DNA of 64,000 nucleotides from Candidatus Krumholzibacteriota bacterium (GCA_039714075.1 JBDLKA010000007.1:828-64827); one strand, 5' to 3'; shown: positions 1,990 through 57,662, numbered from the stretch's first letter. Numbers and translations: made by a program. Notes: generated by a model from the sequence alone, not told the origin.

Positions 1990-3258
1990 ATGAAAACATT
2001 CATTTGGACTGTAATTGCCTGCCTGGCCACTATTTCGGTGGCCCATGCCCAGGCCGTCATCTCACTGGAAATCACCGGCTCATGGACTGCCGCGGACTAC
2101 GACGTGAGTTCTACCGGCCCCACCAGTGGGGCGCTGGGGATCCCGGAAGAGAACGACGATCTAGTGTTCGGGACCTCCCCGTCCGACGGCTCCACAACCT
2201 TCACGCTCCTGGTCGATACGGCCGGTGCCCAATTCATTCCGGCGGGGACTCTGGGGGTGACCCACGACTGGTACGGCTACACGAATGTCAGCCTGGTGGG
2301 AACCCACACCTTCGGATCCGCTTCCTGGGTGTCGAACGACATCCTGACAGCACTGAATGGTCCTGGAGGTGCGACGGCCACGCTGTGGACGAACACGGAT
2401 ATCAGCCTGGCCAGTCCGACGCTCTTGTCTTTCCGCATGTTCGGCACCTGGGAAGGTAATGACGCGGACTTATTCGTCGGGCCCAGGACCGCCACCACGA
2501 TCGGCACGCAATTCCTGCTCTGGGAGTATTACGGCGGCGAGGAGATCCGCTCATGGTCATATGCCGCCACCTCGGTCGTGCCGGTGGAAATCGACATCAA
2601 ACCCGGTAGCGACCCCAACACGATCAACTGTTTAGGGAAACAAGGCATCATTCCCGTCGCCCTGCTGACCACAAATACCTTTGACGCCCTGACCGTCGAC
2701 CACACGACGGTGAGCTTCGGGCGGAGCGAAGCCTCGGTGATCCAAAACCTGAAAACCCCGGCACTCGGGACCGATGGGCGGCGGCCGGGGGTCGGCCCGG
2801 TCATGAAACGCCACGAGGAGGACGTCGACGGCGACGGGGATCTGGACCTGGTGTTTCATTTCGCACGGGACGAGGCCGGCATCAGGTGCGGGGACACCGA
2901 GGCCACCCTTACGGGGGAAACCTACGACGGGCAAAGATTCCTGGGAACCGATGCGATCCGGACCGCCCCGGTGGGGCTGGTGCCTGGTAAGGCAATCGAG
3001 ATCTCGCCGAACCCATTCAACCCCGCCACCAACATCTCTTTCTTCACCGAGAGTCCACAGCGGGTGAAGGTGGGCGTGTACGATGTACGCGGCCGGCTTC
3101 TGACGCTATTGGCCGATCAATCCTACCCCGCAGGCCGGCACACGGTCCAGTGGCTGGGGAGAGATACGGCCGGACGATCGGTTCCCTCGGGAATATATTT
3201 CTTCCGCGTGGAACTGGGCGAGAGAACCGTGGTCCGCAAGGCGATGTTGATGAAGTAG
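1990..3258 (+). CDS. Secreted protein with T9SS type-A C-terminal sorting domain
   Basis: Signal peptide 'MKTFIWTVIACLATISVAHA'. RBS GGAGGG 8 nt upstream. C-terminal domain 'NPFNPATNISFF...GIYFFRVELGERTVVRKAMLMK' matches the Por-secretion-tail / FlgD-Ig-like CTD. Confidence 0.8.
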   Translation: MKTFIWTVIACLATISVAHAQAVISLEITGSWTAADYDVSSTGPTSGALGIPEENDDLVFGTSPSDGSTTFTLLVDTAGAQFIPAGTLGVTHDWYGYTNVSLVGTHTFGSASWVSNDILTALNGPGGATATLWTNTDISLASPTLLSFRMFGTWEGNDADLFVGPRTATTIGTQFLLWEYYGGEEIRSWSYAATSVVPVEIDIKPGSDPNTINCLGKQGIIPVALLTTNTFDALTVDHTTVSFGRSEASVIQNLKTPALGTDGRRPGVGPVMKRHEEDVDGDGDLDLVFHFARDEAGIRCGDTEATLTGETYDGQRFLGTDAIRTAPVGLVPGKAIEISPNPFNPATNISFFTESPQRVKVGVYDVRGRLLTLLADQSYPAGRHTVQWLGRDTAGRSVPSGIYFFRVELGERTVVRKAMLMK

Positions 3259-8785: not shown

Positions 8786-9391
8786 ATGAAAAAGACGGTA
8801 TTGATCGGCATGGCCATGCTGGCCCTGGTGTTTGGCGCCCAGGCCGTCATGGCGGAGTGCTTCATCGGTGGCACCATTACAGCCAGCGCCAACCCCGATC
8901 CCCTGGGACCGACCTGGATGTACACCATGGTCGTCACCTGGGACACGGGCAATGAATACTCACTGAGCCACGCCAACCTGCTGATGGATTCGGCGGCGGG
9001 CACCTGCGTCTGCCAGGACTTCCTGGCCGCCTTGAGCTGGAATGATCCAGCCGGCAGTTCCGGCGGGGTCCCCACGGGCTGCACGGTGGACTACCAGGCC
9101 TTCCTGGAATGCGAGGGGGACCCGAGCATTCCGGGGGTGGATGGAATCCTGCTGAAGTTCGAGCCGGTTTTCGACGAGGCCTGTGAACCCGGACCGACCG
9201 GCACGGGCACCTTCGTCTTCTACTCGAACCTGCCTCCGTACCCCATCAACGAGGAGATCCTCTCGGTGGTGGACAAGTTTGCCGGGGAGTACTGTTTCGG
9301 GTACATGGCGGGAGATTTCCCCACCATCCCCTGCGATCCGGTGGACAGCGTGGACTCCACCTGGGGTAGCCTGAAGGGATTGTTCCGGTAG
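8786..9391 (+). CDS. Secreted Cys-rich protein, family member 1 with conserved C-terminal '...TWGSLKGLFR' tail
   Basis: Strong RBS GGAGGGAGG. Signal peptide 'MKKTVLIGMAMLALVFGAQAVMA'. Eleven Cys in CxC / 'ACEPGP' contexts. Ends 'STWGSLKGLFR*'. Confidence 0.7.
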   Translation: MKKTVLIGMAMLALVFGAQAVMAECFIGGTITASANPDPLGPTWMYTMVVTWDTGNEYSLSHANLLMDSAAGTCVCQDFLAALSWNDPAGSSGGVPTGCTVDYQAFLECEGDPSIPGVDGILLKFEPVFDEACEPGPTGTGTFVFYSNLPPYPINEEILSVVDKFAGEYCFGYMAGDFPTIPCDPVDSVDSTWGSLKGLFR

Positions 9392-9457
9392 GTCGGCAAT
9401 TGCGCATGGCCAACGAAAAGCGCCCGGGAATGATCCCGGGCGCTTGTTATGCCCCCC

Positions 9458-10180
9458 CTACTCCAATCCGCCTCCCACACGGTGGAACCGCAACTCGCAA
9501 AACTGCTTGAATCGATTCATGATATTGGCCGTGACGCGGTTGTGGACCGCCTCCCATCCCTTGCTGACCAGGCGGCTCAACCGGGACGACTTCCTGCCGT
9601 AAAAATCGAAACCCACCATGAGGAACATCTGGGTCATCTCGGTTTCGCCCAGGGCCTGGATGGGGGAACGGGTGAACATGCAAAAATGCCCGATCGGGTA
9701 ACCTCCGGTCGTCCGGAAGAGCACGAAACGGGCATTGTCGGTTTCGGTGCCGTCCACCTGTCGCTGGAGGCGAGAGACCGTCAGATTGAAAAGGGGGATG
9801 TAACGCAGACCCAAAAACCGGTGTTTGCGTCCGAAGGGATATTGCCGCTGGCCGAAAAGGAAGATACTGATGTGGTCGAGCCCCTCCTGCTGGCGCTCGA
9901 CCTCGGCGATATGGTTCGGCCAGCAGGTGGAATCACCGTCCCAACGCAGGATTTCGTCGAAGACATACCGGATCGGGACCTGGATGCCGATCTGGTGGAC
10001 ATTGAGCATGGAATAGAGGGAAACGTCGATCTGCAGCCGCTGCATGATGCGTTGGCTGTAGTCCTCACGCTTGGCGGACGTATCGAATTTGATCAGCGTG
10101 TCGACCGGGGGCCGGCGCACCAGATAATCGGCGATATCCCGCAAGATGCCCTTGATCCAGGTGGAGGATCGAAATTTCAA
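9458..10180 (-). CDS. Hypothetical protein (240 aa), family not recognised
   Basis: Protein-like composition on the minus strand (K/F/Y/I-rich), in contrast to the antisense + ORF 9449..10747, which is R/G/P-rich. Slightly lower local GC. Confidence 0.5.
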   Translation of the reverse strand: MKFRSSTWIKGILRDIADYLVRRPPVDTLIKFDTSAKREDYSQRIMQRLQIDVSLYSMLNVHQIGIQVPIRYVFDEILRWDGDSTCWPNHIAEVERQQEGLDHISIFLFGQRQYPFGRKHRFLGLRYIPLFNLTVSRLQRQVDGTETDNARFVLFRTTGGYPIGHFCMFTRSPIQALGETEMTQMFLMVGFDFYGRKSSRLSRLVSKGWEAVHNRVTANIMNRFKQFCELRFHRVGGGLE

Positions 10181-10384
10181 CCACTGCGCCTCCCAATTGA
10201 TCCGTCCGCCTTATCACCATTGCGGTTACGGTTGAGCGATTATAGCACAGATGATCGGCCGAAACTTCGCTTGTACACAGGCCGGCTTACTTGGCATAGA
10301 CACACCAAAACAAAAGGACCAGCACCAGCCGGCCCCCTCTTCAGGTCGAGGTCGTCCTTTCGGGGGAACGAACTCGGACCCCGC

Positions 10385-10519
10385 CTACCGATAGAGACTC
10401 TTCAGGGAACCCCAATTCGTTTTTTCATTGGCCACTATGGTATCAACCAGCAGAAGGTAGTCTTTCAATTCCCCGTCCTCGAATACCCCCGAGCCGTCCC
10501 AGTTGGGAATCCCGACGGG
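10385..10519 (-). pseudogene. Orphan C-terminal module (~45 aa) of the WGSLKSLYR family. Remnant or cassette downstream of the family-2 gene's terminator.
   Basis: Translation '...FPVGIPNWDGSGVFEDGELKDYLLLVDTIVANEKTNWGSLKSLYR*' matches the C-termini at 8786..9391, 10728..11453 and 62724..63350. The upstream in-frame sequence is low-complexity and crosses a terminator, so there is no plausible start or RBS. Confidence 0.35.
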
Positions 10520-10670
10520 GAAGTTCGTGGTGGTGAAACGACTCCAGACGAAACCGCGTTTGGCTGCCGTCGCGCCTCCCCGATTCTCCCGGCGCTGGTC
10601 TTTCGACCTGACGGCAGTGCTGTTGAAACCGGTTGTTTGCGCAGAGGGAGAAGCCTTACAAAAATCTTCA

Positions 10671-10699
10671 AAAAAAAACCCCGGATTGTGATCCGGGGC
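10671..10699 (-). terminator. Rho-independent terminator of the family-2 gene
   Basis: Minus strand reads CCCCGGAT-caca-ATCCGGGG followed by T9, 29 nt after the stop at 10728. Confidence 0.75.
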
Positions 10700-10727
10700 T
10701 TCTTCAACCTTAATACGGCGGCAGAAA

Positions 10728-11453
10728 CTAGTGGAACAGACTCTTGATCGCGCCCCAGGCTCTCGATTCGACACCGACAGGCGGTGCCGCACACACGATA
10801 TCACCGTAGACGATAAGCTTGCCGCCGCCGGTCTTGTCACCTTTGGATTTCATACCGGACATATCCACCCAACCGTTTCCGTTGTTGATGAACTCGGTGC
10901 AGGCCTGGGGATCGTTGTCGATCACCAGATTGGCCGGAGCACCGCCTTCATAGGCCAGCGAAAGAAAATAGTCGTTGCCGAGAGGGAAAGGTCCACAACC
11001 CAACAGGGGCACGGTTATGGTCTGGATGCCCGGGTCGTTGACATTGACAACGATATCCGGGCCGATACACAACGGGGGTCCCGGTTCAAAACAGCCCGAG
11101 CCCGCATTGAATACCGCGCTGAGCAGGGAGGGTGTGACGGCCAGTGTCTGGGGAATCTGGTTCGCTTCGAAATCGACCAGCATGGTTATCGTCTCGAGCG
11201 TGAAGTGCTCCTCGGGGCAACCGCACTGATCGCTGGGCTTGACATGATAGGCGTACGCCTCGTTGCCGGTGAACACGTCAGGATAAGAAGGAATGACCGG
11301 CGGATTGAGATTACCGATTAGGCAATCGCCGTTCGGCAGGTACGAGTCAGGAAGATCGATGCCACCCGAGCCGTCTCCGGCCAGCGCAACGCCCGCCGCC
11401 ACAAGCAGTGTCACCGCGATCAACAGGCATTTGAAGTGGTGCATTTTCATCAT
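10728..11453 (-). CDS. Secreted Cys-rich protein, family member 2 with conserved C-terminal '...AWGAIKSLFH' tail
   Basis: RBS AAGGAGGA. Signal peptide 'MMKMHHFKCLLIAVTLLVAAGVALA'. Cys motifs 'DQCGCPEE', 'GSGCFEPGPPLC'. Ends 'RAWGAIKSLFH*'. Confidence 0.7.
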   Translation of the reverse strand: MMKMHHFKCLLIAVTLLVAAGVALAGDGSGGIDLPDSYLPNGDCLIGNLNPPVIPSYPDVFTGNEAYAYHVKPSDQCGCPEEHFTLETITMLVDFEANQIPQTLAVTPSLLSAVFNAGSGCFEPGPPLCIGPDIVVNVNDPGIQTITVPLLGCGPFPLGNDYFLSLAYEGGAPANLVIDNDPQACTEFINNGNGWVDMSGMKSKGDKTGGGKLIVYGDIVCAAPPVGVESRAWGAIKSLFH

Positions 11454-11564: not shown

Positions 11565-12389
11565 TTATCGCTCTTGGTGCAGTGCATTCAGCAACGCAAG
11601 GGCTTGAGAACCGTAAACGGGACTATTAAGCAGGACTGTAAGAAACTCTTCTGCCGCGTCGGGTTGATTGGACACCAGATGGGCCTGAACCAGATACCAT
11701 TGTGCTCTCTCACGCACCGGCCGTATCGGTGAAGCCGCGGCCCCGGAAAGGGCTTCAGCAGCGGCAGGCACGTCACCGGCAAGCAGCAGACTCACGCCAC
11801 GGTACAATTCGGCCTGATCGCTGAACCCGGCCTGCCGGGCCGGCGCCGAGTCGGGGAACTGAACCAAAAGGTCCCGCACCAGGGTCAATTCCCGCACAGC
11901 GGAGACATAATCACCGGTGACATAGCTCTCCATACCCCGGTCGAAAACAACCGCGGTGCTGTCGCTTCCACCGGAACGTACTTCGATGTGGGTATAGACC
12001 AAGGGGTCCAGAACCGCGAAATCGCCGTAGGAAAAGTCGACCTCGCCCCGGGGCCACAACAGAACCAGGGCCAGGGTTGCCGCCACGACGATCGGCGCCA
12101 ACACGCGGCCTCCGCCCCTGTTGTTCAACCAGTCGACCAACCGCCGCCACAAACCCGGCTGCGCTGCGGCCACGGATCGCGCAAAGGCCTGCTTGAAGGT
12201 GCCCGGATCAGAAGTCATGGCCACCGCGGCAGGAGCATGGACGTAGAGTTCGGTCAGACAATCTTCGCAATCGGTCAGATGGGTTTCGAAGGCGGCGCGT
12301 TCACAATCCTCCAGCAGACCCATTTCATAGGCCGCCAACCGGTCGCAGGTATCGTGGCGGTTCCGGTTCTTATCCGACATGATTCCCAC
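11565..12389 (-). CDS. Zinc-binding (ZAS-type) anti-sigma factor, single-pass membrane protein
   Basis: N-terminal 'HLTDCEDC' (HxxxCxxC ZAS motif), a TM helix 'VLAPIVVAATLALVLLW', and a ~150-aa extracytoplasmic C-domain. Overlaps the upstream sigma gene by 20 nt. Confidence 0.7.
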   Translation of the reverse strand: MGIMSDKNRNRHDTCDRLAAYEMGLLEDCERAAFETHLTDCEDCLTELYVHAPAAVAMTSDPGTFKQAFARSVAAAQPGLWRRLVDWLNNRGGGRVLAPIVVAATLALVLLWPRGEVDFSYGDFAVLDPLVYTHIEVRSGGSDSTAVVFDRGMESYVTGDYVSAVRELTLVRDLLVQFPDSAPARQAGFSDQAELYRGVSLLLAGDVPAAAEALSGAAASPIRPVRERAQWYLVQAHLVSNQPDAAEEFLTVLLNSPVYGSQALALLNALHQER

Positions 12390-12990
12390 CTTCTTGCCTG
12401 CTTTGCATGAGAGTTCTCAGATGCGCCCGGCATCGGTGCAGATTGGTGTAGAAACTGCCCCTATTCATCTTGGGGTACTCCTTCTGCACCATCTGAAGGG
12501 CCCGGCTGGAGACCTGATTGGGCGACCCGCCCTTTTCCAGACTGTCGAGAAGTCCGTGGAAGATCCGGGCACACCGGGGAAACCGGCGGCCCATCTCCGC
12601 GATTGCCGCCATCAGGGCGGCGGTTGTTTCGGCCAACATGGTCTCACCCAGATAGTCTTCTTCAGAGCCCGCGTCGAGGGGAAGTTCCTCGACGAAATCG
12701 AGCCTTTCCCTTTCGCGGCCTCTTGCCTGATAATGATTGCCGATGACATTTCGCAACACAGTCAGCCCCCAAACCAGGATTCCGGTTCCCTGTTTGATTT
12801 CGCCGTAGCGATCAAATACGATCCCCAGAGCATCCTGAACCACATCCTCCGCGTGGTCCGCCTGCACCCTTCGTTTGGCCAAGGAGAGAAATCTTACACG
12901 GAGATCTTCAAAAAGGGCGCTCTGGGCCCGGGCATCGCCGGAAAGGGCAAGTCGGTGCAGGTTGTCCAGGGTCTGGGCGTCGATGGGCAT
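12370..12990 (-). CDS. ECF-type RNA polymerase sigma factor (sigma-70 regions 2 and 4)
   Basis: Region-2 'DAEDVVQDALGIVFDRYGEI' and region-4 HTH near the C-terminus. Start placed at the internal Met 'MPIDAQTL' (12990), giving a ~206-aa product and a 135-bp divergent intergenic region. Confidence 0.75.
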   Translation of the reverse strand: MPIDAQTLDNLHRLALSGDARAQSALFEDLRVRFLSLAKRRVQADHAEDVVQDALGIVFDRYGEIKQGTGILVWGLTVLRNVIGNHYQARGRERERLDFVEELPLDAGSEEDYLGETMLAETTAALMAAIAEMGRRFPRCARIFHGLLDSLEKGGSPNQVSSRALQMVQKEYPKMNRGSFYTNLHRCRAHLRTLMQSRQEGGNHVG

Positions 12991-13125
12991 CGTGTCAAGT
13001 TTCGCAAAGGTACCGTGCGGATCACACGCATGATCGCACCGGAGCAGCGAGGAGAACCGATCATGTTCGACAATCGTCGCTTTGGCAAGACTCTTGTTGT
13101 CCGGGGCCTGCACCCGTTATTGGTG

Positions 13126-16047
13126 ATGATTGCCTGTGTTTTGGCAGGAACTGCGGACACGGAAGCCGCCCTGGCCCAGCCCGGAAGCGAAGAAGCCTGG
13201 GTTCAAATGGTTCGCGGCAATAAAAACGCGGCCGGTGAGGCCGCCGCCGGCAAAGACGGAATCCTGGACCGCTGGATTCGGGCTGAACTGACGCTATCCC
13301 CCACCAATGGCGCCGCGACCGCTTCCGATCAAGTCTTTCGCGCCGCGGCAGCATTTACCGAACGTGATTTCGGATCCTGCCTTGAAAGTGTAACGGCATT
13401 GCTGACCGACGCCGAAAATGCCGACCGCACTCATCTGCTCCTGCGCCAGGGAGCATGCCTGGTGGAATTGAATCGCATCAGTGAGGCAGACTCTGTTTTG
13501 ACGGTGGCCATTGGTGAGGCCAAACGGCTTGACTTGCCCGTGTCCGAGTGTTTCGGATTGCTGCACCGCGGACGCGGGCGCGTGCGTACGCGGCAGGTGG
13601 AGCCCCCCCGCGCGGACTTGACCGTCGCCCTGGAAATGTGCCGGCAACTGGATCTGCCGAGTTGGGGCGGCCGGGCAGCCATCGCCCTTTCGGTGGTCAG
13701 CCGCTTGCAGATGAATCTGCCGGATGCCCTGCAGTGGCGACGTCGGGCACTCGAGTTGTACCGGGCGGCCGGCGACATCCGTGGGCAGGCCATCGCCACC
13801 CATTACATCGGCGCCATCCAGCAGATGCAGGGCGATTTGACCCGCGCCATCCAGAGCTACCAGGACGCCCTTGTCCTGGCGCGGCAAAGCGGTGTCGCGG
13901 GCACCGAAGGCAGCGTGCTGGGCGAAATGGCCGGCGCCAACTACCTGCTCGGAGACTACGACCAGGCCCTGGACCAGTATCGCGAAGCAATTCGGCTGGC
14001 GGAAAACCCCTGGCGCCGAGGCATGATGCTCATCAACATCGGCTCGATCCTTGAATACCGCGGCGAATACGAAGAGGCGATCGTGGTGCAGCGCGAGGCC
14101 CTGGAGCTGATGCGCCAGGTCGGCGATCACCGTAGCGAAGCGGCGGCCCTCGCGTCGCTGGGCGAAACCCTCTGCGAGATGAAACGATTCACCGAAGGCC
14201 TGGCCTACCTGGACCAGGCCGTGACCGTGGCCCGCCAATACGACATGCCCATGTACGAAGCCTTTGCCCTGAAGAGCAAAGGCCACGGCTTGTTCGACAG
14301 CGGGGACAACCCGGGTGCCATGGCCGCCCTGACCGAAGCCACAACCGTCGCCCGCAGCATCGATTATTTTGAGATACTGGAGTACGCGCTGCTGGGCCAG
14401 GCCATGGTCGCGCGACGTGAAGGAAACCCCGCCGAAGCATTGCTGTATCTAGAGGAAGCCATGGCCGAAGTAGCCGAAGTGCGCCGACGCAGCAGCGGCG
14501 CTTCGGACGTGACCAGCGGTATCGTCGGCCAGGCCGGGGGGATTTTTCGCGAGGCAATCGACCTACTCTATCTCCTGCACCAACAGGATCCCGGCCGCCA
14601 ACTGGACCGCCGGGCTTTTGCCATCGCCCAGCAGGCCAAGGCCCGCGCTTTCCTCGACTTGCTGGCCGAGGCGGAATTCGATCTGCGGTACAGCGCGGTA
14701 CCCGGTTACCGTCAGACCGAGAGCGAAATCCTGACGCGAATCATCGGCCTGGAAAAGCGGTTGGTGACGGCCGTGCCGGATTCGGCCGGTCGCCTGAAAG
14801 CCGAACTGGCCGCCGCCGAAGACGAACTCCAGGTGCTTGAAGCTCGCCTGCGCGCCGAAGACCCACGCTACGCCGCCATCCTATATCCCGAGCCGATGGG
14901 CCTGGACGAAGTCCAGTCCGGTTTGTTGGCGCCGGGCGAATTGTTCCTGGAATACGCATTGGGTGACAGCGCCTCCTATGTGTGGGCGATCGACAGCCAG
15001 GGGGCCGAGATGGTCGCCTTGCCGCCCGGAACGGATATCGAGGCGAAAGTACGGGAATTACTGCCCCTGCTGCAGGACATCAACCTGACGGGCGGGGACT
15101 TGGCCTGGCTTGCTCCGACCGCCCGCGAATTGGGCCGTCTGCTGCTGGATCCAGTGCGGGAAAAGCTGCAGGCCGCCGACCGGGTGACGGTCTCGCCCGA
15201 CGGGATCCTGCACTACCTGCCCTTCGAGACGCTGCTGACCGACGACACCACCGGCCCGTTGGCCTGCGACCTGCCGTGGTTGATCCGGGACAAGGTTGTG
15301 GCGGTCACACCGTCAGCCAGCGTCCTGGCCACTGTCACGCGTCGGCTTGCTGCCGCGGCAGCCTCGCCGTGGCTGTTGGTGGGAGATCCGTTGCTGGTCA
15401 GAGGCGCCGAGGCCGGACTCTTTGCGCGGGCCGCCGGGGCCCGTGACCTGGCGCCTCTGCCCCATGTGCCCGGCGAGTTGGATCGGCTGGGCGAGTTGGC
15501 TCCGGCATCCGGAAGTCGTCAACTGCGCGCCGAGAAGGCGACGGTTGCCGGAGTAAGGGAAAACGGCGCCGACGGCCCCTGGGCCCAGGTTCATTTCGCG
15601 ACCCACGGCCTGATGAACGAGGATCGCCCCCGCTATTCGGGTCTGGTGCTCAGTCCCGATCCCACGACGGACGACGACGGTTTTCTCAGCGTCTCGGACG
15701 TTTTCGGATTGCGGCTGAACTGCGATCAGGTTGTTCTGTCGGCCTGTTCGACCGCCCTGGGCGAGAACGTTTCGGGTGAGGGCCTGGTCGGCCTGACGCA
15801 GGGATTCATGTTTGCCGGGGCACGCTGCGTCCTGGCTTCCCTGTGGGATGTTTCCGGTAAGGCGACGGCGGCATTCATGTCAACCTACTACACCCACCTG
15901 GCGACCGGCGCAAACGACCGGGCGGAGGCCCTTGCGGCGACCAAACGAACCCTGATCTGTGGGGATCCGGAAAACCCTGCCGCCGGATTGCGATACTCGC
16001 ATCCGGCTTTCTGGTCGGCCTTTGTGCTCAGCGGACAGGGCCGTTAG
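13126..16047 (+). CDS. Exported TPR-repeat protein with C-terminal CHAT (caspase-like) protease domain
   Basis: Signal-peptide-like 'MIACVLAGTADTEAALAQ'. Multiple TPR-like repeats ('YIGAIQQMQGDLTRAIQSYQDAL', 'ANYLLGDYDQALDQYREAI', etc.). CHAT block 'HFATHG...SACSTALG...ASLWDVSG' with the His/Cys dyad present. The portion of the ORF upstream of 13126 is an antisense shadow of the sigma gene. Confidence 0.85.
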   Translation: MIACVLAGTADTEAALAQPGSEEAWVQMVRGNKNAAGEAAAGKDGILDRWIRAELTLSPTNGAATASDQVFRAAAAFTERDFGSCLESVTALLTDAENADRTHLLLRQGACLVELNRISEADSVLTVAIGEAKRLDLPVSECFGLLHRGRGRVRTRQVEPPRADLTVALEMCRQLDLPSWGGRAAIALSVVSRLQMNLPDALQWRRRALELYRAAGDIRGQAIATHYIGAIQQMQGDLTRAIQSYQDALVLARQSGVAGTEGSVLGEMAGANYLLGDYDQALDQYREAIRLAENPWRRGMMLINIGSILEYRGEYEEAIVVQREALELMRQVGDHRSEAAALASLGETLCEMKRFTEGLAYLDQAVTVARQYDMPMYEAFALKSKGHGLFDSGDNPGAMAALTEATTVARSIDYFEILEYALLGQAMVARREGNPAEALLYLEEAMAEVAEVRRRSSGASDVTSGIVGQAGGIFREAIDLLYLLHQQDPGRQLDRRAFAIAQQAKARAFLDLLAEAEFDLRYSAVPGYRQTESEILTRIIGLEKRLVTAVPDSAGRLKAELAAAEDELQVLEARLRAEDPRYAAILYPEPMGLDEVQSGLLAPGELFLEYALGDSASYVWAIDSQGAEMVALPPGTDIEAKVRELLPLLQDINLTGGDLAWLAPTARELGRLLLDPVREKLQAADRVTVSPDGILHYLPFETLLTDDTTGPLACDLPWLIRDKVVAVTPSASVLATVTRRLAAAAASPWLLVGDPLLVRGAEAGLFARAAGARDLAPLPHVPGELDRLGELAPASGSRQLRAEKATVAGVRENGADGPWAQVHFATHGLMNEDRPRYSGLVLSPDPTTDDDGFLSVSDVFGLRLNCDQVVLSACSTALGENVSGEGLVGLTQGFMFAGARCVLASLWDVSGKATAAFMSTYYTHLATGANDRAEALAATKRTLICGDPENPAAGLRYSHPAFWSAFVLSGQGR

Positions 16048-16142: not shown

Positions 16143-18056
16143 TTACTTGAGCATGGCGATCTTCTGGATCGCAACCTGCCCCCCACTCTCCATGCGGATG
16201 AAGTACATGCCGCTGGCGACCTGACGTCCGGTGTCGTCCTGGCCATGCCATACCAACTGGTGCACCCCGGCCTGTTTCACACCGTCAACCAGCGTGGCCA
16301 AGCGGCGTCCGGCAATGTCCACGATGGACAACCGGACATGACCCGCCTTGGCCAGACTGAAGCGCAGAGTCGTGCTCGGATTGAACGGGTTGGGATAGCT
16401 GGGTTGCAGGTGGATGCTGCTGTGAGTGCCCTGCGGTACGGCGCTGGCACTTCCCAGCCTCACGCACAGGTCGTCGATGTAGAATTGCTGACCGCCGACA
16501 AGCAGGCGCTGCAGGTTACCGACCAGGGTCACGGTGCCGTAGATATAACCGGGACCGCCGGTGACCGAGACATTCACACTGACACCGGGGAAGAATCCCG
16601 CCGGGATGGTTTCGATCGGTCCGACGTACAGAATACCGTCAATGCCCAGGTTCTCGACGCCCGAACCCTTTACGTAATCGAAACTTACCGAAGCGACGGG
16701 CACGAAGGGCGTCAGATCGTAGGTCACGCCGATGTTGTTGATGTGCAGAACATTGCCGGTACCCAGGGGCCCCCAGGGAGCACCCGTGCTGACGCTGTTG
16801 AACTGCAACCCGGAGCCGTCGTCGAATTCGGCCAGACCAACGTCGATACCGTCTTCGGTGAAGATCACATCGCCCGGCAGATCGCCGTAGGGTCCGCCCC
16901 AGAACATGCCCGCTGGCTGGCTTTCGTTGTCGCTGACGAGGTCACAATCGTTGGCGCCGCCGACTTCCTTGACACAGACATTGTCGACCATGAATTCCTG
17001 GCCGGCCAAAAGCAGTTTTTGGACGTCGCCGGTCAGAACCACTTCGCCCCGCTGCCCGACTGGCATCGGGAACGTGGTTACGCTCATCGTCACGCCGGGC
17101 GCGACCGCGGTCGGGAACAGATCAAGGTCGCCGATATGCAACGTGGCCCCGTTGACCTGCAGGTTCTCCATGCCCCCCAGATCGATATACTCGAAGCTGA
17201 CGCTCTGCACCAGGATACCGAGGGCGCTGATATGGTACTCGTTGGATACGTTGTTGATGTTCATGGCCAGACCGGAACCGAAATCGGCAATGCCCGGAGC
17301 CTGGATGTCACAGAAGTTGAAGCCGGTGGGTCCACCCCAGTCGATCACCCCGATATGCACCGGAATGCCGTCCTCGACGAACATCAGGTCGCCGGGTAAA
17401 TGGGTGCCTGAACCCCAGGTATTGCCCACGGCCTGACTCTCATGGTCGACAAGATAGTCACAGCCGCCGACAATCGGGCTCACATAGCCATTGTCGCAGC
17501 GTACATGGTCGATCCACAACTCCTGGCCGCCCACCTGCATTGTGGCCACCGGACCGGTGAGGGTCACCAGACCTTTCACCCCACCCCCGGGGACCGCAAT
17601 CGTGGTGACGTTCATCGTCACTCCGGGGGCTACCAGTCCCGCCAGGCTGGCAAGATTCGGCCCCTCGAGCACGACCCCGAATCCGTTGACTTGCATATTC
17701 ACCGAACCACCCTGGTTCAGGTATTCGAAGGTAACGTCGGCGGCGGAACTGAAATCAAACAGAACGCCGACGTTGTTGATTTCCAGGGTCTGATTCGTGC
17801 CGAAAAAGATGGGACTTCCGTACATAGGGTCGATCTGGGCGTAATTGAAATAGGGAGTTCCCCCGCTGTAGAAGTTCGCCAGGTGAAGATTGGCACCGTA
17901 TTCGTGGAACATGAAGGCACCGGGCAGCATGCCGGACGGGATACCATAGAAGGTGCCCAGGGGTTCGTTGTCGAAGGTGACGTTATCGGCTAAGGCATTG
18001 CCGGACAGCAGCAGGCTGAGCAGCAATATGGTTAATATGCGCAGGTTCGATTTCAT
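16143..18056 (-). CDS. Secreted protein with three ~200-aa tandem internal repeats and a T9SS type-A C-terminal sorting domain
   Basis: Start at Met 'MKSNLRILTILLLSLLLSGNALA' (18056). Three repeats each contain 'N[LM]QVNG...APGVTM[NS]VTT...LTG.V..L.V.GQE...D.VC'. CTD 'YPNPFNPSTTLRFSL...GMYFIRMESGGQVAIQKIAMLK'. Confidence 0.8.
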   Translation of the reverse strand: MKSNLRILTILLLSLLLSGNALADNVTFDNEPLGTFYGIPSGMLPGAFMFHEYGANLHLANFYSGGTPYFNYAQIDPMYGSPIFFGTNQTLEINNVGVLFDFSSAADVTFEYLNQGGSVNMQVNGFGVVLEGPNLASLAGLVAPGVTMNVTTIAVPGGGVKGLVTLTGPVATMQVGGQELWIDHVRCDNGYVSPIVGGCDYLVDHESQAVGNTWGSGTHLPGDLMFVEDGIPVHIGVIDWGGPTGFNFCDIQAPGIADFGSGLAMNINNVSNEYHISALGILVQSVSFEYIDLGGMENLQVNGATLHIGDLDLFPTAVAPGVTMSVTTFPMPVGQRGEVVLTGDVQKLLLAGQEFMVDNVCVKEVGGANDCDLVSDNESQPAGMFWGGPYGDLPGDVIFTEDGIDVGLAEFDDGSGLQFNSVSTGAPWGPLGTGNVLHINNIGVTYDLTPFVPVASVSFDYVKGSGVENLGIDGILYVGPIETIPAGFFPGVSVNVSVTGGPGYIYGTVTLVGNLQRLLVGGQQFYIDDLCVRLGSASAVPQGTHSSIHLQPSYPNPFNPSTTLRFSLAKAGHVRLSIVDIAGRRLATLVDGVKQAGVHQLVWHGQDDTGRQVASGMYFIRMESGGQVAIQKIAMLK

Positions 18057-18154
18057 GGTTCTTCCTCCTGGGGTTTGAGGTTGCGGCGATATTCCGCGTC
18101 CACAGGAGGATTGTTTTGATGTCGCTGAAATCCTTACAAAAAATCTTGAAAAAA

Positions 18155-19879
18155 TTACTCCGTTGAAACCAGGAACTGCTCCAAAACCTTCATGGAACCG
18201 GGCAGCCAACGGCTTGCTACCTCCCCTGCCTTGCTTTCAGGTCCCGAAAGTTCACCCAGGATTTCCCGCAAGAATGTCAGGCCTGCAGGAATATGGGCGA
18301 GGAAGGACCGCTTGCCTTTGACATGCCCCAGGAACCCGTAGGCACCCAGGGCCTGCATGATTCGTTGAAGACCCGCAGCCAGGGCCATGGCCCGGATATC
18401 GGCAGTAATTAAAGAGGTTGCAGGACCGGTGGAAGTGGCGGACACCGCAAACCGGTCCAGAAGTTCGGCGCGCAATCCCTTCTTGAGTACCACGTATGGA
18501 TCCAGCAATAGGGACATAAGATCATAGGTCAGCGGACCCGGCCGCATGCCCTGAAAGTCCACCAGACGGACCCGGCCGTTCTGCAGATGGATGTTCTGTG
18601 ACTGGAAATCGCGATGGATCAGGACCTGAGGCTGGGCGGCCACCCTTCCGGCCAGAGTATGGAATTCCTCGTCGAGGTCTCCAAGCCCGGCCGGGTTCAG
18701 ACCCAGATGCCCAACCAGGAAGTGCTCCCTGAAATAATCCGTTTCCCAGCGCAGGGCGTCATAGTTCAGGCAGCGATCCACCGCGAGGGGGCATCGTGAC
18801 CGGGCAGCTTCGGTGGATGATTGAAGGCCCAGCAGATGATCCACGGTCCGCCGGTAGGCATCGGCGACGGGATCGGACTGACGACCTTTGCTTTGGACCA
18901 GGGAAAACAGGCTGTCCGAACCCACGTCCTCCATCAGCACCGCGTGGTCGGCCTGGGAAACGGACAGCAGGGCCGGTCCGCCCAGGTTTTGACTTTCGAG
19001 AAAACCCGCGATCTGGACGAAGCGGTCGAACTCCTCGTCCTCCCGAGGACTGACCATGGCCACGGCCGACCAGTCCCCGGCCGCCATCCTCCAGAACCTG
19101 CGGTCCGAGCCGTGACCGGTGATGCGATCAAGGCTCATTCCCCGGCAACCGGTGGCCCCGGAGGGCTGGGCGTCGAGGTAGCGGGCCAGCGTGCCCAGGT
19201 CGCTCCACTGGAAATCACCCGGAGCGAATCCCCGGACACTTTCCGGATCGCCGGCCAACGCACGCACCAAGGGATCGATCAGGGAGGAAAAGCCCGGCCC
19301 GATGTCGTCCAGAAGTCGGGAGGAGAAAACGCCGATCCCGGTGTAGGTAAGATTCCGGGACCCGCGGCCGGCAGAGTCATTCGGCTGCCCGGCGATGCTT
19401 ACGATACGGCCCCCCGGGGACAAGACCACCGAATTGACCGCGGACCAGTCGGTCAGCAGCAAAGTGGCCAGCGCGCCTGACCGCAGATGCTCCGCAACCA
19501 GTTCCGGCAAATCGGCATCACAGAGAACATCGCCGTTGTGGAGAAGGAAATTTTCCGCGCCGGACAAAAAATCCCGGGCGCCATGCAGAGCGCCGCCGGT
19601 ACCCAGGATGTCGGCTTCGGGAAACACGGCGAAACGGCTCGCGTCCGGCCTGCGGGCGATGTGGTCCGCCACCAGCGGGCCCAGATGATGGGTGTTGATC
19701 GCAATTTCCCGAATGCCGGTTCCGGCGTCGAAGCCGTCGATGATGTGATCCAGCAGGGGCCGTTCCCCCACCGGAAGCAGGGGTTTGGGAATGTGGTCGG
19801 TGACAGGCACCAGGCGCGTTCCGTAACCGGCGGCCAGAATCATTCCCCGCAGGGCACCGGGTGCGGTCCCGTCATTCAT
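18155..19879 (-). CDS. Bifunctional sugar-1-phosphate nucleotidyltransferase / anomeric sugar kinase (MurU-like N-domain fused to AmgK-like phosphotransferase C-domain)
   Basis: N-terminus 'MILAAGYGTRLVPVTDHIPKPLLPVG' is an NTP-transferase G-x-G-T-R-L motif. The C-half carries APH/choline-kinase-like motifs 'LIHRDFQSQNIHL' and 'VRLVDFQG'. Confidence 0.7.
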   Translation of the reverse strand: MNDGTAPGALRGMILAAGYGTRLVPVTDHIPKPLLPVGERPLLDHIIDGFDAGTGIREIAINTHHLGPLVADHIARRPDASRFAVFPEADILGTGGALHGARDFLSGAENFLLHNGDVLCDADLPELVAEHLRSGALATLLLTDWSAVNSVVLSPGGRIVSIAGQPNDSAGRGSRNLTYTGIGVFSSRLLDDIGPGFSSLIDPLVRALAGDPESVRGFAPGDFQWSDLGTLARYLDAQPSGATGCRGMSLDRITGHGSDRRFWRMAAGDWSAVAMVSPREDEEFDRFVQIAGFLESQNLGGPALLSVSQADHAVLMEDVGSDSLFSLVQSKGRQSDPVADAYRRTVDHLLGLQSSTEAARSRCPLAVDRCLNYDALRWETDYFREHFLVGHLGLNPAGLGDLDEEFHTLAGRVAAQPQVLIHRDFQSQNIHLQNGRVRLVDFQGMRPGPLTYDLMSLLLDPYVVLKKGLRAELLDRFAVSATSTGPATSLITADIRAMALAAGLQRIMQALGAYGFLGHVKGKRSFLAHIPAGLTFLREILGELSGPESKAGEVASRWLPGSMKVLEQFLVSTE

Positions 19880-42909: not shown

Positions 42910-45900
42910 ATGAAAAGCGATTTCGGTGCCCGGGTTCATTTTCTCTTGATGGGGACGCTTCTGGTGTCCCTCTTGTTTTTCCCCTGTCCGGGAAAGGCCG
43001 GGGAGGATACTGGAATCAAACTAAGGCAGGTGCGTACGAACGACATGCGCCTGATCTATCTGACCGAGGACCACTATTACATCATCCCCCACGTGACGCG
43101 CTGTTTCGAAAACTCCATGGCTTTCCACCGCGACATGTTCAACTACACGCCGGACGAATACGTAACGGTGATTTTCCAGGACATGGACGATTTCGGCTAC
43201 GCCGGCACCACCTCCATCCCCTACAACTACCTGACGCTGGGTATCGAACCCTTCGAGCACATTTATGAAACCAGCCCCACCAACGAGCGCATCCACTGGG
43301 TGATGAGCCACGAACTGCTGCACGTGGTAGCCACCGACCAGGCCACCGGTGCGGACGAATTCTTCCGCAAGCTGTTTTTCGGCAAGGTGGCTCCCACCGC
43401 GGAAGATCCCCCCTCCATTTTCTACAGCTACCTGACCAATCCGCGGCGTTACGCCCCGCGCTGGTACCACGAGGGTCTGGCGGTGTTCATGGAAACCTGG
43501 ATGGCCGGCGGCATCGGCCGGGCCCAGAACGGGTACGACGAGATGGTCTTCCGCTCCATGGTCCGGGACGGTTCCTATTTCTACGACATCGTCGGCATCG
43601 AATCCGAAGGCACGGCGGCGGATTTCCAGATGGGCCAGCTGTCCTACCTCTACGGCACCCGCTTCGTCAGCTACCTGGCGCATCGGTACGGGCCCGAAAA
43701 GATCATCGACTGGACCCGGCGCGACGAAGGAACCAAACGCTCCTTTTCCCGGCAGTTCCGCCACGTGTTCGACCTGAACATCGACGACGGCTGGCGCGAG
43801 TGGATCGCCTGGGAGAAGCAGTGGCAGCAGGCCAACCTGGATTCCATCCGGCAGTACCCCGTCACGCCGCTCGAGGTGGTCTCCGCCCGGGCCCTGGGAT
43901 CGGTTTCCCGCTCCTACTACGACCCGGATTCCCGCCGGATGTTCGCCGCCGTCCGTTACCCGGGGGAATTCGCCAACATCGTGGCGCTCGACGTCGACTC
44001 GGGCAATATGCGGACCATCTGCGACATCGACACACCGTCACTGTACTTCGTCACTTCGCTGGCCTACGACGATTCATCCGGCACCCTGTTCTACACCACC
44101 AACAACGCCCGCGGCTGGCGGGACCTCAACTCGGTGGATATCGCCACGGGCAGGAACCGGCGGCTGATCAAGTGGGCCCGCACCGGCGACCTGGCCTTCA
44201 ACAAGGCCGATGCCTCCCTGTGGGGCATCATGCACAACAACGGGCTGTCCCACGTTATTCGTATTCCCCCACCCTACGATACCATGTACGAAGTGCTTCC
44301 CCTGTCCTACAAACAGGATTTCTACGACATCGACATCTCGCCCGACGGGCGCTACCTGACCGGCACCCTGGTCGATGTTTCCGGGCGGTCCAAACTGGTC
44401 CGGATCGAAATCACCAGCCTCATCCTCGGCGAGACCGAACTCGAGGTGCTGTGGGAATTTCCCCAGAACGCCCCGCTGAACTTCGTCCACTCCGGTGACG
44501 GCCGTTACCTTTACGGGTCGTCCTACCAGACGGGGACATCGAACATCTTCCGCTACGATACCGTCGAGAAGACCATGGCCGCGGTGAGCAATGCCGAGAC
44601 CGGTCTGTTCCGTCCGGTTCCGGTCCCCGGTGATTCCCTGCTGGCCTACGAATACACCGGTGACGGGATGCGGCTGGTCCGGCTGCCCGACGACACCCTG
44701 GAAGACATCGCGCCCGTGCGGTACCTGGGATACGCCATCACCCAAAAACACCCCGTCGTCCTGGACTGGGAACTGGGTTCGCCCCGCAGGGTGGATCCCG
44801 ATTCGGTCATCACCTTCGAGGGCGACTACGACGCCCTGCGCAGCCTGCGCCTCAATACGATCTATCCCGTCATCGAGGGGTACAAGGTCTACACCACCGG
44901 CGGTCTGCGCGCCGACTTCAGCGACCCCGTGGGCATGCACGCCCTGGACGCGGCAATCACCTATTCCGCCCAGAAAAACCTGCCCGAGGATGAGCGTTTC
45001 CATTTCCGGTTCAAGTACCGCCATCATCCCTGGAACCTGTGGGGGGCCTGGAACCGCGCCGATTTCTACGACCTGTTCGGACCCACCAAGGTCAGCCGCA
45101 AGGGATACCAGGTGGGCCTCGGGTACGGTGGATACATCCTCGACGAGGCGCCGAAATCGCTGAAATACAACCTGAACCTGGCCAACTACTGGGGCCTGGA
45201 GGTCCTGCCCGAGTTCCAGAACATCCCCACCTCCTACGACAACTTCATGACCTTGGGCGGGTCCATCCGGTATTCGACCGCCCAGGGCACCATCGGCGGC
45301 ATCGAGGCGGAAAAGGGCTTTCTGACCTCCCTCGACTTCATGAGCACCCTGGTGCGGGGGGACTATTTCACGCGCACCCACCTGGACCTGACCTACGGGT
45401 TCCTCACCCCCATCGATCATTCATCCTTGTGGTTCCGGGTTTCGGGGGGTCAGGGCACCGGTCCGTTGACCGAACCTTTCTCCAACTTCTTCTTCGGGGC
45501 CTTCGGCAACAACCATGTGGACCACGGACGCGTCAACAGGTACCGTAGCTACTACAGCTTTCCGGGTCTGGAAATAAACGAGGCCGGTGGCCGCAACTAC
45601 GCCAAGGGCGGCATGGAATGGACGCTGCCACCCCTTCGTTTCCGCAAAATGGGACTGGCCAACTTCTACGCCACCTGGGCCAGGTTGGCTTTTTTCGGAC
45701 ACGGGCTGGTGACCAATCCCGATCGTGATCGCCAGGACCCTTTTCGCACCGAGGTTTACGATATCGGAGCCCAACTCAACGTCAAACTCGTCCTGTTCTA
45801 CTCCCTGCCGTCGACCTTGTCGGCCGGGTACGCCCGGGCCTTTGAAGAGGGCGTCGAACCGCGGGACGAGTGGATCGTCTCGTTGAAGATCCTGCGCTGA
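42910..45900 (+). CDS. Large secreted multidomain protein: N-terminal HExxH zinc-metalloprotease-like domain, central beta-propeller (TolB/WD40-like), C-terminal outer-membrane beta-barrel-like domain
   Basis: Signal peptide 'MKSDFGARVHFLLMGTLLVSLLFF'. 'VMSHELLHVV' with a downstream 'YHEGLAVFME' (gluzincin-like). Propeller blades 'ISPDGRYLTG', 'SGDGRYLYGSS'. The C-terminal 300 aa show alternating hydrophobic/aromatic beta-strand periodicity ('YQVGLGYGGYIL', 'LDLTYGF', 'AQLNVKLVLFY'). Confidence 0.7.
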   Translation: MKSDFGARVHFLLMGTLLVSLLFFPCPGKAGEDTGIKLRQVRTNDMRLIYLTEDHYYIIPHVTRCFENSMAFHRDMFNYTPDEYVTVIFQDMDDFGYAGTTSIPYNYLTLGIEPFEHIYETSPTNERIHWVMSHELLHVVATDQATGADEFFRKLFFGKVAPTAEDPPSIFYSYLTNPRRYAPRWYHEGLAVFMETWMAGGIGRAQNGYDEMVFRSMVRDGSYFYDIVGIESEGTAADFQMGQLSYLYGTRFVSYLAHRYGPEKIIDWTRRDEGTKRSFSRQFRHVFDLNIDDGWREWIAWEKQWQQANLDSIRQYPVTPLEVVSARALGSVSRSYYDPDSRRMFAAVRYPGEFANIVALDVDSGNMRTICDIDTPSLYFVTSLAYDDSSGTLFYTTNNARGWRDLNSVDIATGRNRRLIKWARTGDLAFNKADASLWGIMHNNGLSHVIRIPPPYDTMYEVLPLSYKQDFYDIDISPDGRYLTGTLVDVSGRSKLVRIEITSLILGETELEVLWEFPQNAPLNFVHSGDGRYLYGSSYQTGTSNIFRYDTVEKTMAAVSNAETGLFRPVPVPGDSLLAYEYTGDGMRLVRLPDDTLEDIAPVRYLGYAITQKHPVVLDWELGSPRRVDPDSVITFEGDYDALRSLRLNTIYPVIEGYKVYTTGGLRADFSDPVGMHALDAAITYSAQKNLPEDERFHFRFKYRHHPWNLWGAWNRADFYDLFGPTKVSRKGYQVGLGYGGYILDEAPKSLKYNLNLANYWGLEVLPEFQNIPTSYDNFMTLGGSIRYSTAQGTIGGIEAEKGFLTSLDFMSTLVRGDYFTRTHLDLTYGFLTPIDHSSLWFRVSGGQGTGPLTEPFSNFFFGAFGNNHVDHGRVNRYRSYYSFPGLEINEAGGRNYAKGGMEWTLPPLRFRKMGLANFYATWARLAFFGHGLVTNPDRDRQDPFRTEVYDIGAQLNVKLVLFYSLPSTLSAGYARAFEEGVEPRDEWIVSLKILR

Positions 45901-46910
45901 TGGCGATGGCGGCCCACGTGGCTTTCGGCCTGCTGCCGGTGGCCCTGTACCTGGTGGCCCTGGTGGCCATGGACAGCTACAAGCTGGTCCGGGTGCAGAC
46001 GGTCCTGGTCGCCGTCGCCGCCGGCTTCGGCGCGCTGTTGATCTGCAACTTCCTCAACCCCTGGGTCATGGGCCTGACGGGCACATCGCAGACGACCTTT
46101 TCCCGCTACCTGGCCCCCATCACCGAGGAAACCTTCAAGGGCGCCTACCTTGTCTTTCTTTTCCGCCGCCACCGGGTCGGGTTCCTGGTGGACGCCGCCA
46201 TTTTCGGATTCGCGGTCGGGGCGGGATTCGGCATCCTGGAAAACATATTCTATCTCAGCATGCTGGAGGGCGCCGGCCTCTTCACCTGGGTACTGCGGGG
46301 CTGCGGCACGGCGCTGATGCACGGCAGCACCACGGCGGTTTTCGCGATAATCCTCCAGGCCAACAGTGAAGCCGGGCATGTCTTTCGTTTCCGGCATCTG
46401 CTGGCCTCCCTCGGTGTGGTCATGCTCCTGCATTCGCTGTACAACCATTTTTTGGTTTCCCCGGTGCTGACCGCCCTGGGCCTGGTGCTCGGCGTGCCCC
46501 TGATCACCTTCGCCATCTACCAGCGCAGCGAAAAAGCCCTCGAAAAATGGTTGGGGGTGGGTTTCGACGCCGATTCCGAGATGCTGGCCATCATTACCGC
46601 GGGCAAGGTTTCCGACACCAGGATCGGGGCCTACCTGATGTCGTTGCGGGACCGGTTCGCGCCCGAGGTCGTGGCGGACATGATCTGTCTGCTGCGGATC
46701 CAGGTCGAGTTGGCCATCGAGGCCAAGGGCCTGCTCATGCTGCGGAGGGAAGGTTACGATATCGAACCGGGTCCCGAACTCCAGGTAAAGGTCGAGGAAC
46801 TGCGTTACCTGGAGAAAAACATCGGGGCCACCGGGCGCCTGGCGGTGATGCCCCTGAGGCACCGCGGCGGCAGGGATTCGTGGCAGAAGAATCTGTTGAA
46901 ACAGGGGTGA
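45900..46910 (+). CDS. PrsW-family intramembrane metalloprotease
   Basis: ATG overlaps the upstream TGA (TGATG). PrsW motifs 'EETFKG', 'FGFAVGAGFGILEN', 'ALMHGSTTA'. Confidence 0.8.
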   Translation: MAMAAHVAFGLLPVALYLVALVAMDSYKLVRVQTVLVAVAAGFGALLICNFLNPWVMGLTGTSQTTFSRYLAPITEETFKGAYLVFLFRRHRVGFLVDAAIFGFAVGAGFGILENIFYLSMLEGAGLFTWVLRGCGTALMHGSTTAVFAIILQANSEAGHVFRFRHLLASLGVVMLLHSLYNHFLVSPVLTALGLVLGVPLITFAIYQRSEKALEKWLGVGFDADSEMLAIITAGKVSDTRIGAYLMSLRDRFAPEVVADMICLLRIQVELAIEAKGLLMLRREGYDIEPGPELQVKVEELRYLEKNIGATGRLAVMPLRHRGGRDSWQKNLLKQG

Positions 46911-57644: not shown

Positions 57645-57662
57645 GCCTGAAGGAGAGACGTC

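Follow-up and report, generated by a model that had tools for sequence, protein, structure and literature searches.

Why do exported proteins with no detectable homology in their bodies end in almost the same ten residues? The question is raised by a stretch of 64,000 nucleotides from a Candidatus Krumholzibacteriota bacterium (GCA_039714075.1 JBDLKA010000007.1:828-64827), here called the window, and in particular by its positions 8,786 to 11,453, where two genes with this shared C-terminal tail are located. We find that the tail exists as a peptide under selection, that it is portable and nearly always terminal, and that exported proteins in many phyla related to Bacteroidota carry it. C-terminal sorting tags are already known as a kind; new here is a tail that has no name in the databases and the literature that we searched.

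To describe the tail in the window we used a listing of its open reading frames (ORFs) together with a six-frame scan for the regular expression WG.[LIVM]K..[YFW]. A first-pass annotation had named three genes with this ending, here P1, P2 and P3, and both their coordinates and their terminal peptides are exact in the ORF listing. P1 (8786..9391, plus strand) encodes a Sec-exported beta-sandwich of 201 residues that ends in TWGSLKGLFR; linker and tail, PVDSVDS-TWGSLKGLFR, are found at 9338..9388, with the decapeptide at 9359..9388 and the stop codon at 9389..9391. P2 (10728..11453, minus strand) is an exported beta-sandwich of 241 residues, and its decapeptide AWGAIKSLFH (10731..10760, minus strand) is atypical, with A at position -10 and H at -1. 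P3 (62724..63350, minus strand) is also exported, has 208 residues counted from its ATG, and ends in SWGSLKSIYR (62727..62756). All three start with a hydrophobic signal-like segment, as the annotation had proposed. Of the strong Shine-Dalgarno sites that it reported for the three genes, those of P1 (GGAGG) and P2 (AAGGAGG) are confirmed, while the site of P3 is G-rich.

A fourth tail, TNWGSLKSLYR followed by TAG (10385..10417, minus strand), was missed by the first-pass annotation. It closes an ORF at 10385..10840 that has no signal peptide and no start codon outside its overlap with P2, and the BLAST similarity of this ORF is through the tail only. Gene calling on a second, independent assembly (Logan contig L120) did not pick up this ORF, so the fourth tail is probably what is left of the 3' end of a tail gene that has decayed. 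The window then holds four tails, [ST/A/N]WG[SA][LI]K[SG][LI][YF][RH], in three intact genes and one remnant, and in the six-frame scan a stop codon directly follows the motif in all four. With a degenerate DNA pattern three matches are obtained in the window, against 0.00 expected from 100 dinucleotide shuffles.

The three proteins were initially described as paralogs, but their bodies are without detectable homology. In BLASTP searches among P1, P2 and P3 the alignment is confined to the tails, covering the last 17-19 residues or so. Further, when the P1 family (121 sequences) and the P2 family are compared profile against profile, the probability over the C-terminal part is 90.7%, and this drops to 2.6% when the last 19 residues are removed. 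The 'CxC' and 'C(F)EPGP' blocks, also described as shared, are present only in P1 and P2 and are not significant. A relationship of these two through the strings 'CxC' and 'CEPGP' was tried as well and is rejected, as its signal disappears on trimming the tail.

In all three families the tail is retained at the extreme C-terminus throughout. Members of the P1 family are about 200 residues long, come from metagenome-assembled genomes (MAGs) of Krumholzibacteriota and end in CDPVxxxxx[ST]WGx[LV]KG[LM][FY]R. P2 is 100% identical to the NCBI protein ABFS42_02820 from a Candidatus Krumholzibacteriota MAG, and its four homologues end in [ST]WGSIK[SG]LYR. These relatives match DUF7451 (PF24248, gathering score 27 bits) with 22.9-36.1 bits, over the body only and with the tail excluded, while P2 itself has no match. 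The P3 family contains 66 representatives at 50% identity, mostly 200-220 residues long and mostly aligned end to end; 37 of them have canonical tails, and in the others W-G is exchanged for F-G, F-D, M-D, L-D or M-E.

Two further observations concern P3. The variant members of its family (P0138-P0184) retain [IV]K[AS][LM]YR, and since this half is kept when W-G is replaced, the core of the motif is the K-x-x-Y-R half. Two giant proteins that lack the tail, P0134 (4240 residues) and P0137 (2275 residues), contain 10-12 tandem repeats of the P3 body, so that P3 has the look of an adhesin-type repeat unit standing by itself.

The anatomy of the tag can be seen in a logo built from 107 full-length carriers, in which W, G, K, Y/F and R are forced by the search pattern while positions -17 to -10 are unforced. 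The tag is about 17 residues long and consists of a spacer rich in Pro, Thr and Val, P-[VT]-[PA]-[TV]-[ER]-x-x, and then [ST]-W-G-x-[IVL]-K-[SAG]-[LM]-[YF]-R-COOH. In the spacer half the logo has P at -17, V/T at -16, P/A at -15, T/V/A at -14 and E/R/K at -13. The terminal half has S/T at -10, W at -9, G at -8, I/V/L at -6, K at -5, S/A/G at -4, L/M/I at -3, Y/F at -2 and R at -1. The semi-conserved 'P..V..(D/N)' segment noted earlier upstream of the tail is thus real, with P-[VT]-[PA]-[TV]-[ER]-x-x-[ST] as its sharper form. A cysteine is common at -18 to -20. Serine or threonine is found at -10, which the pattern leaves free, in 99 of the 107 carriers, and the last residue is arginine in 106. 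The mean column identity is 5%, and the only invariant residues are W, G and K, all of which are required by the pattern.

The tail is nearly exclusive to the C-terminus: of 154 occurrences in a six-frame translation of 914 kb of fetched DNA, 149 run straight into a stop and three more are followed by a single extra residue. Codons for Gly, Arg, Tyr and Leu vary synonymously between copies, Ser at -10 is encoded by AGY as well as by TCN, and no DNA similarity was seen 3' of the stop codons of the tails. Therefore, selection acts on the peptide. The same observations rule out a repeated DNA element or terminator as the source of the shared end.

At the DNA level it can also be recorded that all four window tails stop with TAG. 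In loci L001-L119 the share of TAG is 49% among tail genes and 32% among other ORFs of at least 200 residues (Fisher p=0.002). Genes with type IX secretion system (T9SS) domains show 50% TAG as well; the ORF calls behind these shares are crude. Extended tails are ...LYRNTTR, ...MYRQSPE, ...VYRK, ...LYRR, ...LYRD and ...LYRTHEE (P0128, P0124, L022, L037, L071, P0148).

How widespread is the tail? A scan of one genome per GTDB species with the pattern TGGGGNNNNNTNAAGDSNNTNTWYCGNTRR gave at least 129 matches in at least 119 loci. Among the matches listed, a true stop follows the motif in 128 of 129, and S or T precedes the W in 119 of 129 although this position was unconstrained. The labelled hosts among them are mostly Candidatus Eisenbacteria; other labels are Krumholzibacteriia, Latescibacterota, uncultured Fibrobacteraceae/Fibrobacter, Gemmatimonadota, Zixibacteria and Effluviviaceae. 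A few odd single host labels are probably due to mis-binning or chance. Several copies of the tail are found per MAG.

Metagenomes were scanned with low-GC codons (AAA, AGR), and at least 120 loci were found. These contain at least 130 terminal motifs, of which at least 113 close a real ORF and show S/T at -10. At least 68 of these 113 or more tails belong to one secreted family of about 135 residues, ending in ...VSGVKRTWGSIKAMFR and encoded on low-GC contigs. The family has no Pfam match (examples are L139:1079-1495 and L141:278-673), one member is labelled Ignavibacteria, and its gene is in conserved synteny with maf, an LPG_synthase_TM protein, SpoIID, icd and EF-G. Together the two scans add more than 240 ORFs that end in the tag consensus, and a search of a 5.8-billion-protein database with a 40-column tail profile gave 10 candidates. 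The motif is thus broadly enriched and nearly all of the matches listed are terminal, so that the tail is not limited to a few paralogs.

Viral-classed IMG/VR contigs (L243-L255) contribute another thirteen matches, of which about nine are plausible ORFs with signal peptides. Prophage cargo, or bacterial DNA wrongly classed as viral, could account for these carriers.

The carriers are exported proteins of many kinds. A signal-like hydrophobic N-terminus is found in 107 of 123 full ORFs, some of them lipoprotein-like. Most carriers have 200-300 residues and no Pfam domain, while others reach 600-1300 residues. The Pfam domains found among them are Beta_helix, PD40/TolB-like propellers, LTD, CBM_4_9, CBM96, Cleaved_Adhesin, InhA MAM, pectate lyase and DUF7450/7451, i.e. 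domains that are typical of surface or secreted proteins. NCBIfam adds the choice-of-anchor families W, E and J, DNRLRE proteins and an ExeM-like nuclease, as well as families with relatives that need rhombosortase, myxosortase or T9SS; M36 peptidase types belong to those with rhombosortase- or myxosortase-dependent relatives. Choice-of-anchor domains are defined by having different C-terminal anchors in different lineages. Such domains (NF041928, NF033208, NF038128) are found in three of the 107 carriers (E=7e-53, 3.3e-39 and 1.2e-25), and NCBIfam gives no choice-of-anchor match in the window proteins.

A separate case is L084:1724-6325, where six tandem tail genes encode proteins of 226-394 residues whose signal peptides resemble those of lipoproteins (...LGCGDD); one protein can therefore have both the tail and a lipid anchor at its N-terminus.

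Among the known C-terminal signals that come close to the tail is that of T9SS. Two window proteins had been reported to carry T9SS-type domains, and both are real. In the first (1990..3258, plus strand) residues 338-418 match FlgD_ig (E=1.8e-07, 31.5 bits) and Por_Secre_tail (E=2.2e-05, 25.1 bits), and in the second (16143..18209, minus strand) residues 605-684 match the same two models (E=2.9e-09, 37.2 bits and E=3.5e-05, 24.4 bits, respectively). With a Pfam cut-off of 27 bits for each model, FlgD_ig is above and Por_Secre_tail just below the threshold. The earlier proposal that the tail is a separate module coexisting with these domains in the window is upheld, and the module is portable.

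In some proteins the tail is exchanged for such a domain. In locus L023 two tandem genes (5773-6414 and 6447-7454) encode proteins that are 67% identical over 181 residues, through a P[IV]E..S spacer. One of them ends with WGKVKSLFR and a stop, the other with a FlgD_ig-type domain of about 95 residues that has a weak Por_Secre_tail match (17.2 bits, cut-off 27). A second pair of this type, with 40% identity, is found in L090, and among beta-helix proteins those that carry the tail and those that carry a T9SS-type domain are homologous. The tail therefore stands where, in homologous proteins of the same genomes, a known secretion signal is found. The spacer is common to both endings in the L023 pair, but not in general.

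Is the tail then simply another way into T9SS? It could be a compact alternative entry or attachment signal, read for example by a TPR-containing component or by the attachment complex. The labelled hosts are almost all from lineages of the Fibrobacteres-Chlorobi-Bacteroidetes group, where T9SS-type domains also occur. Further, proteins with T9SS domains are the commonest neighbours of the tail genes (40 of the 120 tail loci listed), they are present in the window, and homologous bodies bear one ending or the other at the same junction. However, all known T9SS signals (types A, B and C) fold, have conserved motifs and extend over some 70-100 residues or more, and type A is a folded immunoglobulin-like unit of this size with motifs A-E (PMC10202324). 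The tail has 10-17 residues and is predicted to be unfolded or helical. Neither does it resemble T9SS signals in sequence: the models Por_Secre_tail, FlgD_ig and TIGR04183 gave no match at E<=10 on the four window tails and none over the tail region of the 107 carriers. Type B (TIGR04131) and type C gave no NCBIfam match either, and the tail is too short for their definitions (PMC10202324). Type C, a ChiA-like region of about 100 residues (cl41395; PMC10202324), was considered by itself and ruled out on its length. Finally, the presence of both endings on near-identical tandem paralogs suggests different fates rather than redundancy, and the linkers before T9SS-type domains generally lack the spacer of the tail. 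We therefore find an entry through T9SS unlikely.

Our preferred reading, to which we lean without great confidence, is that the tail is a portable C-terminal sorting or docking tag that is distinct from the T9SS domain and is read by a dedicated receptor. That the tail would moreover be the address label of an unrecognised pathway for sorting or surface attachment, with its own receptor or machinery and running in parallel to T9SS throughout the Bacteroidota-related phyla, we consider possible but on balance doubtful. This reading is favoured by the terminal position, the selection on the peptide, the modularity, the export signals of the cargo, the swaps with a T9SS-type domain, the tail predicted to be off the folded body, its breadth and the lack of a named equivalent, while the binding to a receptor and the final location of the tagged proteins are inferred as follows. 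The N-terminal signal peptide would take the protein through Sec, and the body would then fold in the periplasm, often with a cysteine just before the spacer, leaving the tail exposed and flexible. A dedicated receptor or docking protein would bind the tail as a short linear motif, possibly in the form of a short helix with W, I/V, K and Y/F on one face and G-x-x-x-small on the other. Binding would set the final place of the protein, either by retention at the outer membrane or cell surface or by transfer to a translocon. The tail would then work much like the T9SS C-terminal domain, PTS1 with PEX5, or terminal tags of the KDEL type.

What shape does the tail have? The first-pass annotation saw it as a terminal beta-strand, and the predictions do not bear this out. 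In the AlphaFold2 model of P1 (predicted local distance difference test, pLDDT, 88.5) a beta-sandwich spans residues 26-179, followed by a low-confidence linker (181-192) and a short helix (193-200, pLDDT about 51-73). P2 is predicted as a different beta-sandwich (43-221), with residues 227-241 disordered. In both of these different folds the tail sits off the folded body, and structure searches gave nothing beyond generic matches to immunoglobulin-, cohesin- and carbohydrate-binding-module-like folds. The hydrophobic moment of the tail peaks near 110 degrees (0.548), and at 100 degrees it is 0.475 compared with a mean of 0.357 for shuffled sequences. It is equally high at 180 degrees, so helix and strand periodicities are both above the shuffles and the moment does not separate them. 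If the tail is a helix, W, I/V, K and Y/F would lie on one face and G(-8), the small residue at -4 and R(-1) on another.

Such a helix might need no receptor at all, if it were a self-sufficient amphipathic anchor to a membrane leaflet or to lipopolysaccharide. W, Y, K and R are typical residues of the membrane interface, and the tail is rich in interfacial W, K, Y/F and R. The predicted helix of P1 and the moment near 110 degrees fit with this as well. Nine residues are, however, very short for a stable in-plane anchor, and the equally high moment at 180 degrees gives no preference for a helix. Generic anchors also vary widely, while different phyla all keep G(-8), K(-5), a small residue at -4 and R(-1). 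Some carriers, such as those of L084, are already lipoproteins. A direct anchor therefore appears quite unlikely to us.

The genes around P2 bring up another explanation. Directly upstream of P2 and on the same strand are genes for an anti-sigma factor with a TPR-like C-terminal region (11565..12389, minus strand; TPR_16 20.4 bits, cut-off 32.7) and for a sigma factor resembling the extracytoplasmic function type (12370..13113, minus strand; weak Sigma70_r2, 20.6 bits, cut-off 24). A divergent gene encodes a protein with TPR and CHAT domains (13000..16047, plus strand; CHAT E=1.6e-61, TPR_12 E=7.8e-25). This order of four genes is retained at the P2 orthologue in a second Krumholzibacteriia MAG (L241:5390-10711, L242), where the equivalent of the anti-sigma factor has a weak zf-HC2 match, the TPR-like tail being a feature of the window copy. 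The four genes may form a signalling unit, with P2 as a sensed or regulated component.

The tail might accordingly have nothing to do with sorting and be an element of interaction or assembly, such as a donor in oligomerisation, a ligand of the anti-sigma TPR or a degron for a periplasmic protease. The conserved module around P2 is in line with this, as are the many carriers that are small single-domain proteins of binding type with 200-300 residues, and the single conserved tail-bearing family in Ignavibacteria. However, the tail is also found on enzymes, propellers, beta-helices and proteins of 600-1300 residues, mostly without a sigma/anti-sigma neighbour, and its swap with a secretion domain points to localisation. 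As a general explanation of the tail we regard such a role as improbable. Least probable of all is a covalent handle, with the lysine cross-linked to peptidoglycan or another polymer or a peptidase cutting at [ST]-W: the lysine is near-invariant, a Tyr/Phe-Arg pair closes the tail, somewhat like the Y-R-K end of Lpp, and the Ignavibacteria tail family adjoins a SpoIID-type cell-wall gene in 17 loci, but the lysine is at -5 and not terminal, and neither an L,D-transpeptidase nor a peptidase recurs in the neighbour census of the listed loci.

Several observations weigh against a tag that is read by a dedicated receptor. A census of neighbours at 120 genome loci gave no candidate for a receptor, peptidase or translocon, and none emerged when the census was extended to the metagenome loci (about 120 listed) and the window genes. 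The adjacency of tail genes to T9SS cargo, 22 observed against 18.6 expected within loci, is not significantly raised (p=0.13). In Ignavibacteria the tail is mainly found on the single conserved protein of about 135 residues in housekeeping synteny, which could mean a protein-specific binding role instead of a general address label. The apparently invariant W and G are partly due to the search pattern, as W-G is frequently replaced in the P3 family. The tail is not absolutely terminal, since a few copies have 1-5 residues after it, which makes recognition of a free carboxylate less likely. Finally, the tail conformations that AlphaFold2 gives for P1 and P2 are of low confidence, and every carrier genome among the matches listed is a MAG.

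After T9SS-domain proteins the commonest neighbours at the 120 loci are TolB-like proteins, Ser/Thr kinases and two-component systems. Other genes of the window can be mentioned here. Between P1 and P2 is an ORF of 240 residues (9458..10180, minus strand) that has no Pfam match, is located in a stretch of lower third-position GC and is called as a gene in the Logan assembly. Further away, a protein with VIT and VWA domains (782 residues) is followed by a VWA_4 protein (403 residues) at 55296..58874 (plus strand), and a PrsW-family intramembrane protease is encoded at 45870..46910; no link to the tail was found for either.

Known C-terminal sorting signals have each led to a dedicated machine: sortase, exosortase, rhombosortase and T9SS. 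A considerable share of the exported proteins bears the tag described here in Eisenbacteria, Krumholzibacteriota, Latescibacterota, Fibrobacterota, Gemmatimonadota and Ignavibacteria, phyla that are mostly uncultured and whose surface biology is essentially unannotated. A hidden Markov model (HMM) of the tail would flag many "hypothetical proteins" as exported and co-sorted, and it would also serve in phylogenetic profiling for the cognate receptor. If the tail does belong to a new pathway, this would alter the prediction of secretomes for environmentally abundant polymer degraders, and it would provide a portable tag of 10-20 residues for the engineering of display or secretion.

How does the tail compare with what is already described? 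No model of Pfam-A or of NCBIfam release 20.0 (June 2026) covers it, and the first-pass annotation had not recognised a described sorting signal in it either. A profile search of PDB sequences found nothing, and in the full-text literature, searched also for literal tail strings, the tail is not named. With T9SS type A (PF18962/TIGR04183; also FlgD_ig PF13860) it shares the C-terminal position on Sec-exported proteins of Bacteroidota-related phyla, the modular occurrence on many unrelated cargoes in several copies per genome, and the interchangeability on homologous bodies that is seen in the L023 pair. In contrast to the folded 70-100 residues or so of type A, the tail is a linear motif of 10-17 residues that is predicted to be detached. 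The two have no similarity by HMM or sequence, and they coexist in the same genome and locus.

The sortase-type tripartite signals (PEP-CTERM/exosortase, LPXTG/sortase, GlyGly-CTERM/rhombosortase and MYXO-CTERM) likewise have a short C-terminal motif on diverse exported proteins, with choice-of-anchor and DNRLRE-type cargo and many substrates per genome. In these signals a transmembrane helix and a basic cluster come after the motif, and the tail has neither. As the first-pass annotation had concluded, the tail is not of the PEP-CTERM, LPXTG or GlyGly type, because no hydrophobic segment follows it; it also has no NCBIfam match. Like the tail, the beta-signal of the beta-barrel assembly machinery (BAM) occupies the last ten residues or so at the extreme C-terminus, and both have a glycine upstream of an aromatic residue that stands close to the end. 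The tail, however, ends in arginine in nearly all carriers and not in an aromatic residue, and its cargo consists of soluble beta-sandwiches, beta-helices or propellers and not of beta-barrels. Braun's lipoprotein (Lpp), which is attached to peptidoglycan, ends in ...YRK and so shares a C-terminal Tyr-Arg pair and a conserved lysine, but in the tail this lysine stands at -5, the chain ends with Arg or His, and the carriers are not small helical lipoproteins.

An analogy in function only can be drawn to the peroxisomal signal PTS1 (-SKL), read by the TPR domain of PEX5, and to KDEL with the KDEL receptor. These signals are short, independent of the cargo, essentially terminal and exposed, as the tail is; they are eukaryotic, have no sequence relationship to it, and have a known receptor. 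If the tail does label an unrecognised pathway of its own, it would be the first C-terminal sorting signal of diderm bacteria that consists of a bare linear peptide of about ten residues and lacks both a membrane helix and a folded domain.

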